DNA of 64,000 nucleotides from Escherichia coli (GTDB lineage Bacteria > Pseudomonadota > Gammaproteobacteria > Enterobacterales > Enterobacteriaceae), in the NCBI RefSeq assembly GCF_003018115.1, contig NZ_CP027457.1; one strand, written 5' to 3'. Shown piece after piece: positions 15,551 through 18,500 of this stretch. How positions within the stretch are numbered: position 1 is the first letter of the stretch; each line of letters opens with the position of its first letter. Made by a program: the position numbers.

Positions 15551-18500
15551 TAATGAGGGACGTATTTGTATTAGTCGCGACTTGATCTGACACATAGCCT
15601 TGAAAGGTTGAGAGTTACCGGTTTTGATATGAGTGTCGAATCCTTATCCAAAACAAGAGGTAACTCTCATGCTTCATACTGCCAATCCCGTCATCAAACA
15701 CAAAGCCGGTTTGCTCAATCTGGCTGAAGAACTCAGCAACGTATCAAAAGCTTGTAAAATCATGGGCGTTTCGCGTGATACGTTTTATCGTTACCGCGAA
15801 CTGGTCGCTGAAGGCGGTGTGGATGCGCAGATTAATCGTAGTCGCCGCGCTCCTAACCTTAAGAACCGTACCGATGAGGCAACTGAACAGGCTGTTGTTG
15901 ATTACGCCGTCGCTTTCCCGACACATGGTCAGCACCGGGCCAGCAACGAGCTGCGTAAACAGGAGGTTTTTATCTCCGACAGTGGTGTCCGTTCTGTCTG
16001 GTTACTCCATAACCTTGAGAATCTCAAAAGACGATACTGAACAAATTTTATCAGGTGACGTTCCGTAAAAAGTTGTATGGAGTTCTCGATGCAGTCGGCG
16101 CGACTATCAGTACCCCCGCTGAACCCTGGACTATCGGGCCGCCGTACTGGGGCATGTCACCCTGGCGTGCCGCTGGTTTTCCGCTAATGGTTTATTTCCT
16201 CTTTCTTTCCCAGCAAGAATTTATTTTAATCCGGAAGGATTATTTATTTTCAGATAGGGACTCACATTAAACACGTAACATTTTAATTAATGCATGGCTG
16301 AATATGTATTACACAATGTCAGATATCGTAAAAGACCAGTGCAATTCTATGTAAACTCTCTGACTGTTCATTTTATTTGTTGTTTCAGGGTCGGAACTCA
16401 CCCTCAATAAACAACTGAATACGAGTAGATATTCATCGTCTGAGCTATATGGCTTTACACAATAGCCGACATGTCTTTTCTCAGTCAGGAATTTTACTTT
16501 TCCTCACTACGAAGTTGACGACTTCGATATGGGATAGACTCTTAATTCAAGCAATTACTCTGCACAAGCATCAGGCAATCCAGCTCCAATATTTGTTATA
16601 AAATAATGCGTAACATTAATTTCACCAACAAAAAAAAGGTTTACGCTATCCCCTTGCCCTGGTATTTTACCATATTTACACCACACTTTTTTTGTATCTG
16701 GATCATTCTCTGATACGATTTTCGCCACTTGTTCCCTGGCCCTCACTGTCAATGTTTTCTTAAACCTACCCCCATCATCATTTGTTAGGGAAAAATAAGA
16801 AAAAAAATAATCATCTTCTACATTTGTGTATATTGATATATCCACCGCTACGTGCGGAAAAAAATCTGGGAGCCATGTAAAAACTCCATCATTTTCTGGT
16901 ATTGCCATATAGTTTATGTAATGTTTACTTACAAGAGATTCATCTTTGTATAAATAAAGATAAGTAATTACGCATAAAACAACAATGATTATAATAGCAA
17001 AAATAAATATTATCATCTTTGATAGATTACTTGAGATAGCCAGCATCTTGTAAAGCCTTTATCGTTTTTTTATGCTCTGGATTAATATAATCACTACATC
17101 TATCTGAGCAATCTGTTGTTGATGGACATGTCAACCCATGGTCATTTACAGCCAAGTCTTTTTTATTATCTTCAATCATTTCAGAATGGGATAGCTTTAC
17201 TTTTCTGCCGTACATACCGAACAGATTTAACCCGTAATCTCTAATCTCTTTTTCATAACCCAGCCCTTTCGCCGATCGGCTAACACCAGCGTCATTTAAT
17301 TTAGACACTCGACAAAATGCCATACAATGGAAAAATTGATCAGTCCCACCTAAATTTAATCTCTTCATATCTTCATAAGTATCAGATAATATATCCCATG
17401 CTCTTTGATGGTTTAGTTGATCTTTTCTTCTTATTAGCGCTACATCTGCGGGACTTAACCCTAATGGATCAATACCATTCACCGGATTCAGCGGATACGC
17501 ATACAGACTCCATCCCCCCTCCAGCCCTATCGGGTCCTGAGTGATATACCGCCCCTGCAACGGATCGTAGTACCGGTTCCGGTTGTAGTACAGCCCCGAC
17601 TCCGTATCATACTGCTGCCCCGGCAGCCGGTACGGCTGGTGCAGGTGATGCGGGTTCTCCTCATTAAGCTGGTTGCCCCATTCATCATATTCCGCGCTCC
17701 ACGCCGTATTGCCGTCTTCACTGATAAGCGCCAGCGGCAGGCCCCGGTGGTCACAGTGATAAAGATGTATTTTTCGCTCAGGCAAATAAACCGGCTCTAT
17801 CTGTGCCGCCAGCCGCTCCACCGTCAGCCCGCACTGCGCAAGCCACTGGCGGCTTTCACTGCTCACGCAGTTTGCCCGGATTTCCCCCTCCAGCCTGTCC
17901 AGCAGCCCCACCAGTTCAGCCGGGAACACCACACCGTGACCGTCCTCACTCCCTTCCTGCTGTAACTTCTCCACCAGGCTTCGCCGCTGCGCTTTATCCA
18001 GTTCGCCGTTCTCTGTCTCGATGCGGATGAGCGGCGCGAAGCTCCCCGGCTGGTATACCGTCTGGATACGCGTGGTATCGGTCTGTACCGTCGTCAGCCA
18101 GTCGCCGTCCCATCCGTACCACGTCACCTCCGGTTTACGCGACAGCGACATCCATCCCGTCAGGTCACTCTCGCGACGCCACACCCGTTTCCCCGTCCGG
18201 CGGCCCAGCGGGTCGTAGAGGTAGCGGCTCTCGACCAGTGGCTCCTCATGCTGTATCCGCGTGTAAAACACCAGCCGGTGCTGGCTGTCGTAGTGGTAGT
18301 GGTGGGTCCGCTCGTCGTCCGTCCGTATCACACCCGTCGGGATGCGGTCCGTCTTCTCCGTCAGCCTGCCGTATTCATCGTGGCGGTAGACATAGTGCGC
18401 ATCCTCCGCGATGCGGTTATCCGGCCACACTGTGAGTGTACTGTCCGGGTGCAGCTCCGGGTCCGGCAGCCGGTTGCCCGCCGGGTCCGTGGCATACGGG

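Follow-up and report, generated by a model that had tools for sequence, protein, structure and literature searches.

The window analysed here, a 64-kb stretch of Escherichia coli DNA, carries on its minus strand a complete Rhs gene whose end overlaps a short gene for a membrane-anchored protein. The longest Rhs ORF runs over 21256..17027 (1409 aa) and begins nine codons upstream of position 21229, the start given in the K-12 and RefSeq annotations, from which the protein is 1400 aa long. The features on which the argument depends are the following.

17456..21229, minus strand: Rhs core up to DPLGL, made up of a PAAR-like stretch at the N terminus, DUF6531, YD/RHS repeats and an RHS-associated core domain
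17027..17455, minus strand: 142-aa toxin tip with its stop codon, a domain of serum-amyloid-A-like (prok-SAA / Lipocone) type
16555..17046, minus strand: ybbD, 163 aa, predicted immunity gene encoding an N-terminal membrane anchor and an exported alpha/beta 'YbbD_head' domain
16111..16188, minus strand: 78-nt copy of an rhs 5' end, equivalent to K-12 ylbI and with 82% identity to the rhs start, a remnant that delimits the element downstream

The first of these genes encodes the Rhs polymorphic toxin found at the E. coli rhsD locus. The NCBIfam model RHS_core (NF041261) scores 2737 bits (cut-off 2000) over residues 10-1267, YD_repeat (TIGR01643) and Rhs_assc_core (TIGR03696) from the same collection also match the core, and Pfam finds DUF6531 (E 5e-17), RHS repeats and RHS; the Pfam PAAR_motif match at the N terminus is weak, covering residues 8-29 only (E 0.061). 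Residues 10-1267 are 95.4% identical to residues 1-1258 of K-12 RhsD, and the homology ends exactly at DPLGL, the core C terminus reading NGIDPLGL. Composition breaks just as sharply at this point, with a GC content of 0.628 (63%) in the core, 0.366 (37%) in the last 142 codons and 0.324 in the downstream ORF, against 0.549 in the whole window. The coding part of the tip (residues 1268-1409) occupies 17030-17455 and its stop codon 17027-17029, and the protein ends in QDAGYLK. A preliminary description of this DNA had noted a low-GC tip of 142 aa behind the IDPLGL core end, followed by a membrane-anchored ORF of 163 aa that overlaps the Rhs stop by 20 nt. Both points are borne out by the ORFs 21256..17027 and 17046..16555, the latter with one hydrophobic segment; the overlap results from the start of ybbD lying inside the rhs gene. 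No vgrG, T6SS or other secretion gene was found within the 64-kb window.

The same description held the tip to be unlike that of K-12 RhsD, and indeed the two give no alignment beyond chance and no end-to-end match. The further label 'non-K-12' has to be withdrawn: at both the DNA and the protein level the tip matches the C-terminal portion of ylbH, a K-12 pseudogene, with 100% identity (142/142), and 17704..15550 as a whole is 99.3% identical to K-12 ylbH-ybbD-ylbI-ylbG. The K-12 RhsD tip (annotated DUF4329) and its partner YbbC (NTF2-fold YbbC/YhhH family) are unrelated to the window tip and YbbD, whereas the locus, the 95%-identical Rhs core and the cassette logic are held in common. The window looks like K-12 with the rhsD-CT/ybbC cassette taken out. 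Mismatch maps place a switch point at 17646..17659 (minus strand), upstream of which the sequence follows the main rhsD core of K-12 and downstream of which it follows ylbH, a pattern that fits a recombination junction within the 3' end that the two cores share. K-12 ylbH/ybbD is a displaced orphan without an Rhs body, whereas both genes are intact in the window; the 78-nt repeat is annotated as a partial gene in K-12 and RefSeq alike. RhsD (z0651) and RhsDI (z0654) of EDL933 likewise represent the same module at the same locus, with a tip identical at 141 of 142 positions. A run of eight T inside ybbD (16800..16807, minus strand) leaves the frame intact in the window; K-12 and EDL933 have seven T at this run, and there ybbD is frameshifted to an 86-aa stub, in EDL933 beside an intact Rhs gene. 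The cassette occurs in about half of the complete E. coli genomes (2862 of 5426), on a long core as in the window in 963 of them and as a K-12-type orphan in 1837, and in 2298 genomes the tip keeps at least 99% identity. Strain F9792, for example, has the window arrangement and matches the 901-nt tip/ybbD cassette with 100% identity.

The tip belongs to the serum amyloid A (SAA) family and is a bacterial relative of animal SAA. An HMM search against domain families, which had been proposed as a check, matches Pfam SAA (PF00277) to the tip alone (E 3.6e-4, 21.3 bits), and the same model reaches 52 of the 72 members of the tip family at E<=1e-3, at best with 1.5e-26. A profile of the family recovers nothing but SAA chains from the PDB (E 3e-16 to 2e-8), and hhalign aligns it with human SAA1 at 98.7% (E 2e-16), pairing H43, E70, D96, D100, N104 and G107 of the tip with H37, E63, D75, D79, N83 and G86 of SAA1. 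The AlphaFold (AF2) model of the tip (pLDDT 96.6) has helices at residues 2-33, 39-51, 56-78, 90-108, 116-123 (short) and 129-137, and it shows the four-helix cone with a short fifth helix beside H2/H4 that is the mark of SAA and prok-SAA proteins. The top seven Foldseek hits of this model are all SAA crystal structures, a clean ranking at E-values of only 0.02-0.4. Compared with human SAA1 (4IP8) and mouse SAA3 (4Q5G), the tip is a homologous helical bundle (TM 0.68-0.73, SAA-normalised) at a structural-alignment identity of only 16-19%, and it shares with animal SAA the motifs M..AN..G.D..FH and D...N..G. It differs in a longer H3-H4 loop and an additional C-terminal helix; animal SAA, for its part, is a free secreted apolipoprotein that has neither the four cysteines of the tip nor an Rhs carrier or an immunity partner. 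Low hydrophobicity (maximal 19-residue Kyte-Doolittle mean 0.55) marks the tip as a soluble domain. No family in NCBIfam or PADLOC matched it, and a Peptidase_C7 match (E 0.02), which no relative supports, is put down to chance.

A word-indexed search found only enterobacterial near-relatives, and the wider tip family came into view only through an exhaustive profile search. The 121 relatives at E<=1e-3 are nearly all C-terminal, behind a DPxGL-type Rhs/YD end. In the 72-sequence family alignment, from which conservation was defined, the conserved set comprises D39, H43, C44, C48, E70, D73, D96, D100, N104, G107, C116 and C120; no variation is seen at D39, H43, E70, D100 and N104, conservation reaches at least 90% at D73, D96 and G107, and the four cysteines are invariant or nearly so. 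Active Lipocone domains have been described as carrying a conserved His, Glu and Asp in H2, H3 and H4, respectively, along with an acidic residue where H3 ends, a downstream polar residue in H4 and a capping Gly (PMC12419801). Judged by its sequence, the tip would qualify as an active member, since H43, E70, D100, D73/D96, N104 and G107 are all kept. The sNxxGR motif of the SAA-Wnt clade, on the other hand, appears only partly kept, which counts against the explanation that we favour below: the corresponding stretch reads VNDHGL, in which Asn and Gly are conserved and Leu replaces Arg, and close relatives of the tip also have a hydrophobic residue at the Arg position, next to a conserved Cys-Pro.

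Neither the likeness of the tip to SAA nor the existence of prok-SAA toxins is new, and the module is an ordinary one in E. coli. The SAA resemblance of the EDL933 RhsD (z0651) tip was published in 2020 (PMC7216683), and prok-SAA toxins were described in 2025 (PMC12419801). The latter and the tip are alike in SAA-type sequence and fold, in the His/Glu/Asp set with its additional acidic, polar and glycine positions, in the short fifth helix and low hydrophobicity, and in their C-terminal position behind RHS repeats; the Leu at the sNxxGR Arg position sets the tip apart. Both also have a membrane-tethered immunity partner, which implies action outside the cytoplasm. The activity of the prok-SAA family is itself predicted, and a search of the searchable literature found no experimental test of the tip or of any prok-SAA toxin. 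Publications on ylbH mostly concern Bacillus ylbH or bulk gene lists, and none deals with function. In the part of the PMC12419801 supplements available, neither 'Escherichia coli' nor 'YbbD' was found.

YbbD matches NCBIfam NF011298 over its full length (residues 1-163, 378.9 bits against a cut-off of 326), and its hydrophobic segment at about residues 11-33 (19-residue Kyte-Doolittle maximum 3.37) has the character of a signal-anchor. According to precomputed annotations, PF26610 (YbbD_head) is carried by the 93%-identical cluster representative and by YbbD homologs. A cluster of full-length 163-aa YbbD proteins has 1365 member sequences. C123 is invariant across the family, the one such cysteine outside the TM segment, and most members have a cysteine near the C terminus; the homolog at locus L008 has the lipobox cysteine only. 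The AF2 model is of moderate quality (pLDDT 81, with four of the five models near 60) and has no assignable fold. PADLOC has no family for YbbD, and a Pfam Sigma_reg_N match is at chance level. The pairing with the tip extends to divergent relatives: YbbD-type genes lie directly downstream of tips that are 51% (L003), 45% (L006) and 34% (L008) identical, and each overlaps the end of its toxin gene. The L003 partner carries PF26610, and the L008 partner has a weak PF26610 match with a lipoprotein lipobox (LLAAC) in place of the TM anchor. Immunity identity drops with that of the tip, to 32% for the partner of the 51%-identical one. Together with the break at DPLGL, these partners uphold the earlier suggestion of an exchangeable toxin/immunity cassette. 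YbbD does not fit Imm-SAA, which is described as an alpha-helix with four beta-strands and four absolutely conserved cysteines (PMC12419801); by the same description-level comparison YbbD has two conserved cysteines and a TM or lipobox anchor. Between 15900 and 17500, five promoter-like sites were counted against 4.9 in shuffled sequence, so no internal ybbD promoter can be claimed, and two terminator-like sites against 0.8 expected.

The preliminary description considered that the toxin activity could not be inferred from the sequence. This was too cautious, because an SAA/Lipocone domain with an intact, conserved polar set leads to a specific and testable prediction, namely periplasmic action on the envelope. 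That the tip is an SAA-fold Rhs toxin with YbbD as its immunity protein on the periplasmic side appears likely. The fold family, the conservation of residues, the toxin/immunity pairing across divergent relatives and the exported immunity domain come from the analysis itself, and the periplasmic side is also favoured by the signal-anchor of YbbD, the L008 lipobox, C123 of YbbD and the four cysteines of the tip. For the best explanation overall, in which the SAA-like tip is a catalytic toxin of the periplasmic envelope that is blocked by YbbD, we consider the balance to be even. The Rhs shell would enclose the tip, which would be released by cleavage after DPLGL, as established for other Rhs proteins, and delivered to the periplasm of a neighbouring cell, probably through a type VI secretion system. 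Counting against this route, the window contains no T6SS genes and the PAAR match of the Rhs protein is weak. Once in the periplasm, the small, soluble, cysteine-stapled helical bundle would damage the envelope, whereas in siblings the exported head domain of membrane-anchored YbbD would bind and block it on the periplasmic side. As to the chemistry, the invariant His43/Glu70/Asp100, with Asp73, Asp96 and Asn104, may attack a phosphate-linked lipid head group. We put such an enzymatic mechanism at slightly under an even chance. The most plausible substrate would be a wall precursor linked to undecaprenyl-(pyro)phosphate, for instance lipid II, the substrate shown for the distantly related TelC of Streptococcus intermedius.

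TelC, with its partner TipC, belongs to the same superfamily according to PMC12419801 and stands alone among Lipocone toxins in having a demonstrated reaction. Its substrate is lipid II, which it cuts at the undecaprenyl-diphosphate link; its toxicity is confined to the outside of the cytoplasm, and TipC, an extracytoplasmic immunity protein, counters it (PMC12419801). Cleavage or exchange of lipid head groups has been shown among Lipocones only for TelC and PTDSS1/2 (PMC12419801). TelC differs from the tip in its Lipocone clade, its T7SS/LXG route and its Gram-positive host, and no direct sequence or fold match between the two was obtained. A closer structural neighbour points in another direction. 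BteO, which forms with BtiO a T6SS effector/immunity pair of Bacteroides fragilis GA3 (PDB 9UU0; PNAS 2025, PMC12541434), is structurally similar to the tip and, among solved structures other than SAA, comes closest to it. Its toxicity is confined to the periplasm, and it was reported to be nonenzymatic and to bind OmpA (PMC12541434), which counts against a catalytic tip. By analogy, the tip might keep the same fold, periplasmic site and YbbD immunity but act without catalysis, by sequestering an envelope protein and disturbing wall homeostasis; the target could be, for example, the peptidoglycan-binding C-terminal domain of OmpA-family proteins. We think this unlikely, though it deserves to be taken seriously. 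The residues required for BteO toxicity, R143/H144, H167/E168 and D191 (with D187), form an xH / xE / DxxxD pattern that parallels F42-H43, K69-E70 and D96/D100 of the tip by spacing alone; as this is also the predicted active-site pattern of Lipocones, they could equally be catalytic. The assays in the available part of the BteO report are for PG hydrolase and amidase only and do not cover lipid-carrier activity (PMC12541434). In addition, BteO stands alone, with an N-terminal TM helix of its own, and is not an Rhs tip, it has no detectable sequence similarity to the tip and no link to the tip family at E<=10, and BtiO is an OmpA-C-like mimic, which the YbbD model is not.

It could also be argued that the module is a largely silent relic at the rhsD locus, serving at most as a reservoir for recombination and never deployed. 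About two thirds of the carriers (the 1837 genomes with the K-12 junction) hold it as a promoterless orphan behind rhsD-CT/ybbC, and the frameshift of ybbD, which K-12 and EDL933 share at one and the same T-run, points the same way. An intact Rhs and tip beside a frameshifted ybbD in EDL933, and the like frameshift in K-12, are hard to square with an actively delivered toxin in these strains and also weigh against the explanation that we favour. The window, moreover, lacks secretion genes, and K-12 is known to have no T6SS. Yet in the window both genes are intact with the tip in frame with a complete Rhs protein, 963 genomes share the window arrangement, and neither the 1365-member cluster of full-length YbbD nor the near-identity of the tip in 2298 genomes is what a relic would lead one to expect. 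In Salmonella, orphan Rhs modules can regain activity by recombination (PMC3967940). On balance we find a silent relic quite improbable. Still far less credible is a tip aimed at the animal host, mimicking SAA to modulate inflammation or to aggregate, as was proposed in silico for EDL933 RhsD from the match of the z0651 tip, nearly identical to ours, to 4ip8 (TM 0.62; PMC7216683): a dedicated exported partner that changes in step with the tip among distant bacteria is the hallmark of an antibacterial toxin/immunity pair, the family is found at Rhs/YD C termini in many metagenomic lineages and keeps its polar set intact, along with four conserved cysteines, at no more than 16-19% identity to SAA, and the cassette occurs equally often in pathogens and in commensal and laboratory lineages.

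SAA is among the major acute-phase proteins of humans, and there is still debate about its molecular function; its bacterial relatives are predicted to be toxins that target the envelope. With an SAA homolog in about half of sequenced E. coli, and in K-12 as a repairable pseudogene pair, the species offers an unusually convenient test system, in which one could ask whether domains with the SAA fold attack lipid-linked wall precursors as enzymes, whether they take a route through OmpA-family proteins and how YbbD blocks them. One may go further and suppose, tentatively and with more doubt than belief, that the E. coli rhsD-locus tip, BteO and animal SAA are versions of a single ancient weapon directed at the periplasm and have their mechanism in common. 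Under the same joint reservation, BteO would be an unrecognized SAA/Lipocone fold whose 'OmpA-binding' residues are the catalytic His/Glu/Asp set, and binding to OmpA-family proteins, also reported for human SAA, would be a docking step that precedes attack on lipid-linked wall precursors. If this were true, no genetic model for the biochemical function of SAA would be more tractable than K-12 ylbH/ybbD. For annotation, the 'RHS element core protein / hypothetical protein' pair at the rhsD locus becomes readable as an SAA-like toxin with YbbD immunity, and K-12 ylbH/ybbD as a displaced copy of the same cassette.

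On concordant evidence from sequence, profile and predicted fold, the C-terminal tip of the Rhs protein in the window is a bacterial serum amyloid A (SAA) family member. We consider it probable that the protein is an SAA-fold Rhs toxin that would attack the target cell on its periplasmic side, where YbbD, the product of the overlapping downstream ORF, would block it. The cassette is laid out as follows.

21256..17027, minus strand: longest rhs ORF by ORF call, 1409 aa
21229, minus strand: rhs start as in K-12 and RefSeq genomes by annotation comparison, 1400 aa
17027-17455, minus strand: the tip, last 142 aa of the Rhs protein
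17046..16555, minus strand: ybbD, 163 aa, starting 20 nt ahead of the rhs stop

The flanking genes (gcl, allR, allA, allS and selU/mnmH on one side; ybbP, ybbA and tesA on the other) identify this as the E. coli rhsD locus. The longer ORF places nine extra codons (MNKTKRALY, 21229-21256) ahead of the K-12 RhsD and RefSeq start (MSGKPAARQ...), and the shorter protein is probably the genuine form. The NCBIfam model RHS_core spans residues 10-1267 (2737 bits), the YD-repeat and Rhs-associated-core NCBIfam models also match, and Pfam finds DUF6531, many RHS repeats and a weakly matching PAAR motif (E 0.061). The core ends at NGIDPLGL, followed by the 142 residues of the tip; GC content, 0.628 for the core, drops to 0.366 for the tip and to 0.324 for the next ORF, whose product has a single strongly hydrophobic segment, at its N terminus. 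ORF and GC data thus bear out all that the preliminary description had stated of tip length, GC drop, anchored 163-aa ORF and 20-nt overlap, and its reading of an exchangeable toxin/immunity cassette was correct.

Searched alone against Pfam, the tip matched Serum amyloid A (PF00277, E 3.6e-4). Since a word-indexed search reached only enterobacterial relatives, a five-sequence profile was run exhaustively against 1.84 billion cluster representatives, which yielded 121 proteins with E ≤ 1e-3, almost all of them matched at the C terminus, right behind a DPxGL-type Rhs/YD core end. In a 72-sequence family alignment D39, H43, C44, E70, D100, N104, C116 and C120 are invariant and M30, C48, D73, D96 and G107 nearly so. 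In scans of the single sequences, Pfam SAA recognises 52 of these 72 at E ≤ 1e-3, the best at 1.5e-26. In the PDB the alignment profile finds nothing but SAA chains (E 3e-16 to 2e-8), and profile-profile comparison with human SAA1 (98.7% probability, E 2e-16) aligns tip H43/E70/D96/D100/N104/G107 with SAA1 H37/E63/D75/D79/N83/G86. The AlphaFold2 model built from this alignment (pLDDT 96.6, pTM 0.89) has helices at 2-33, 39-51, 56-78, 90-108, 116-123 (short) and 129-137; in a Foldseek search of the PDB, ranks 1-7 are SAA crystal structures (probability 0.99-1.0; TM 0.68-0.73, normalised to SAA), and lower ranks are noise. Unlike animal SAA, the tip family conserves four cysteines, C44 and C48 at i/i+4 on the second helix and C116 and C120 on the short fifth helix. 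From their positions on these helices we infer two disulfides that would staple the fifth helix to the second, which would fit a protein working in an oxidising compartment.

The SAA likeness of this module and the prok-SAA toxin class are already published. Burroughs, Nicastro and Aravind (eLife 2025) placed animal SAA and bacterial 'prok-SAA' in the Lipocone superfamily, together with Wnt, TelC, VanZ and phosphatidylserine synthases, and named prok-SAA as one of the toxic tips that polymorphic toxins (T6SS, MuF) carry (PMC12419801). The ancestral polar set described there (an H2 His, an H3 Glu and an H4 Asp, with an acidic residue ending H3, a polar residue later in H4 and a capping Gly) is fitted exactly by H43, E70, D100, D73, N104 and G107 of the tip family, whereas of the sNxxGR motif of the SAA-Wnt clade the tip (VNDHGL) keeps only Asn and Gly. 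The same authors predicted that prok-SAA domains attack phosphate-linked lipid head groups, on the model of TelC, a protein that cleaves lipid II and whose toxicity is limited to the outside of the cytoplasm, and noted that the associated immunity proteins are without exception membrane-anchored or lipoproteins (PMC12419801). Our literature search found no experimental work on the tip or on any prok-SAA toxin.

YbbD itself matches NCBIfam NF011298 above cut-off, and its near relatives carry the Pfam annotation PF26610 (YbbD_head). At three loci with divergent tips, the gene of a small exported protein lies directly downstream and overlaps the end of the toxin gene.

L003: tip identity 51%; downstream 173-aa YbbD_head protein, 32% identical to YbbD
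L006: tip identity 45%; downstream 168-aa TM-anchored relative
L008: tip identity 34%; downstream 143-aa protein at 1256-1687, weak YbbD_head match, YbbD family profile E 1e-9

The partner co-varies with the tip, as is usual for cognate immunity proteins. The L008 partner starts with a lipoprotein signal (LLAAC) in place of the TM anchor, and this interchange of signal-anchor and lipobox places the YbbD head domain on the periplasmic side. Two export modes, signal-anchor and lipoprotein, thus occur within one YbbD_head family. Across the YbbD family W58, F63, P64 and C123 do not vary, and members usually have a C-terminal cysteine. At L003, in another genome (1832-5667; GCA_003324795.1, CP029992.1), an orphan array has the 51%-identical SAA-like tip as one of its units. 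A weak Ntox16 fragment and a weak DUF6714 protein stand ahead of the tip, and behind it come the YbbD_head gene and then a TseH/Imm58 pair; in this array displaced toxin/immunity modules are stacked one after another.

By analogy with other Rhs proteins, the tip would be delivered by a T6SS and released after DPLGL. Within this SAA-fold periplasmic reading we tentatively favour an enzymatic attack on a phosphate-linked lipid head group, for which the most plausible substrate would be lipid II or some other precursor linked to undecaprenyl, because the full polar set is conserved although mean column identity in the family is only 27%. The main rival, which we regard as rather unlikely, is that the tip is a nonenzymatic sequesterer of OmpA-family proteins. 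It comes from an unexpected structural neighbour, 9UU0, an MBP fusion of the Bacteroides fragilis T6SS effector BteO (PNAS 2025, PMC12541434). According to that paper, BteO is toxic in the periplasm only, causing elongation, blebbing and lysis, has neither PG hydrolase nor amidase activity, binds OmpA-family C-terminal domains and is neutralised by BtiO, a periplasmic OmpA-C mimic; its authors term it nonenzymatic. Its toxicity is lost on mutating R143/H144, H167/E168 or D191, with D187 at the interface (PMC12541434), and the same xH / xE / DxxxD pattern recurs, by spacing only, in the tip (F42-H43, K69-E70, D96/D100) and in SAA1 (F36-H37, R62-E63, D75/D79). Human SAA has been reported to bind E. 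coli OmpA, so that OmpA binding offers a concrete rival mechanism and possibly a unifying one. The tip-family profile does not reach BteO in a profile search; SAA is not named in the BteO paper, nor is Bacteroides in the Lipocone paper (PMC12419801). The module is a convenient E. coli handle on the function of SAA-fold domains, and on whether BteO belongs with them.

Quite improbable, though possible, is that the module is a largely silent relic in many strains. Several points speak against active deployment: the window holds no T6SS genes within its 64,000 nt and the PAAR match is weak; ybbD is broken in K-12 and EDL933, in the latter beside an intact toxin gene; and the orphan layout accounts for two thirds of carriers, as counted over 5426 complete E. 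coli genomes.

901-nt tip/ybbD cassette: 2862 genomes
K-12 ybbC-ylbH junction (orphan layout): 1837 genomes
tip continuous with a long piece of the core, as in the window: 963 genomes
K-12 RhsD-CT/ybbC cassette: 1896 genomes

A host-directed SAA mimic is very unlikely: an in-silico EHEC survey of 2020, in which the C terminus of EDL933 RhsD (z0651) models onto human SAA1 and seven O157:H7 PAAR-Rhs proteins match PF00277, read the likeness in this way (PMC7216683), but the immunity partner co-varies with the tip and the family is spread over metagenomic Rhs/YD proteins.

As far as DPLGL, the Rhs protein of the window shares 95.4% identity with K-12 RhsD; the tip that follows does not resemble K-12 RhsD at all. 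The tip had been called non-K-12; it is indeed unlike the K-12 RhsD tip, but K-12 ylbH holds identical tip DNA, and 17704..15550 is 99.3% identical to K-12 ylbH-ybbD-ylbI-ylbG. In K-12, by sequence comparison, the same cassette is dead and displaced, an orphan located behind the present rhsD-CT/ybbC cassette. Window ybbD has a run of 8 T (16800-16807, minus strand), and K-12 ybbD has 7 T and a frameshift. EHEC EDL933 has the layout of the window (tip 141/142 identical) with the same T-run deletion (7 T), its ybbD being annotated as an 86-aa protein; this frameshift stub has its own NCBIfam model, NF011297. An intact SAA-tip Rhs thus stands beside a broken immunity gene in EDL933, and K-12 and EDL933 are distant lineages, yet share the identical frameshift. 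Either slippage recurs at this T-run or the producer is not harmed by its own toxin. Mismatch maps place a switch at 17646-17659, upstream of which the sequence resembles the K-12 main rhsD core and downstream K-12 ylbH; this looks like a crossover inside the shared 3' end of the core, of a kind that fits either direction and either ancestral layout.

Downstream of the cassette, the 78 nt at 16111-16188 (minus strand) repeat the rhs 5' end, with 82% identity to 21133-21229; they correspond to the K-12 pseudogene ylbI and are the stump of another rhs start. A 135-aa ORF at 15633-16040 (plus strand), between the rhs element and selU/mnmH, corresponds to K-12 ylbG; its RefSeq counterpart is labelled an incomplete helix-turn-helix domain protein. 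Elsewhere in the window, a 6925-aa ORF (36464..57241, minus strand) runs uninterrupted, flanked by type I secretion genes encoding an ABC permease/ATPase (34298..36460, minus strand) and an HlyD-type adaptor (33126..34301, minus strand); a further 451-aa ORF (57350..58705, minus strand) lies in the same 33126-58705 region. The EDL933 counterpart of the 6925-aa ORF, annotated 'BapA-related adhesin SiiEA', is a pseudogene, interrupted by an internal stop.
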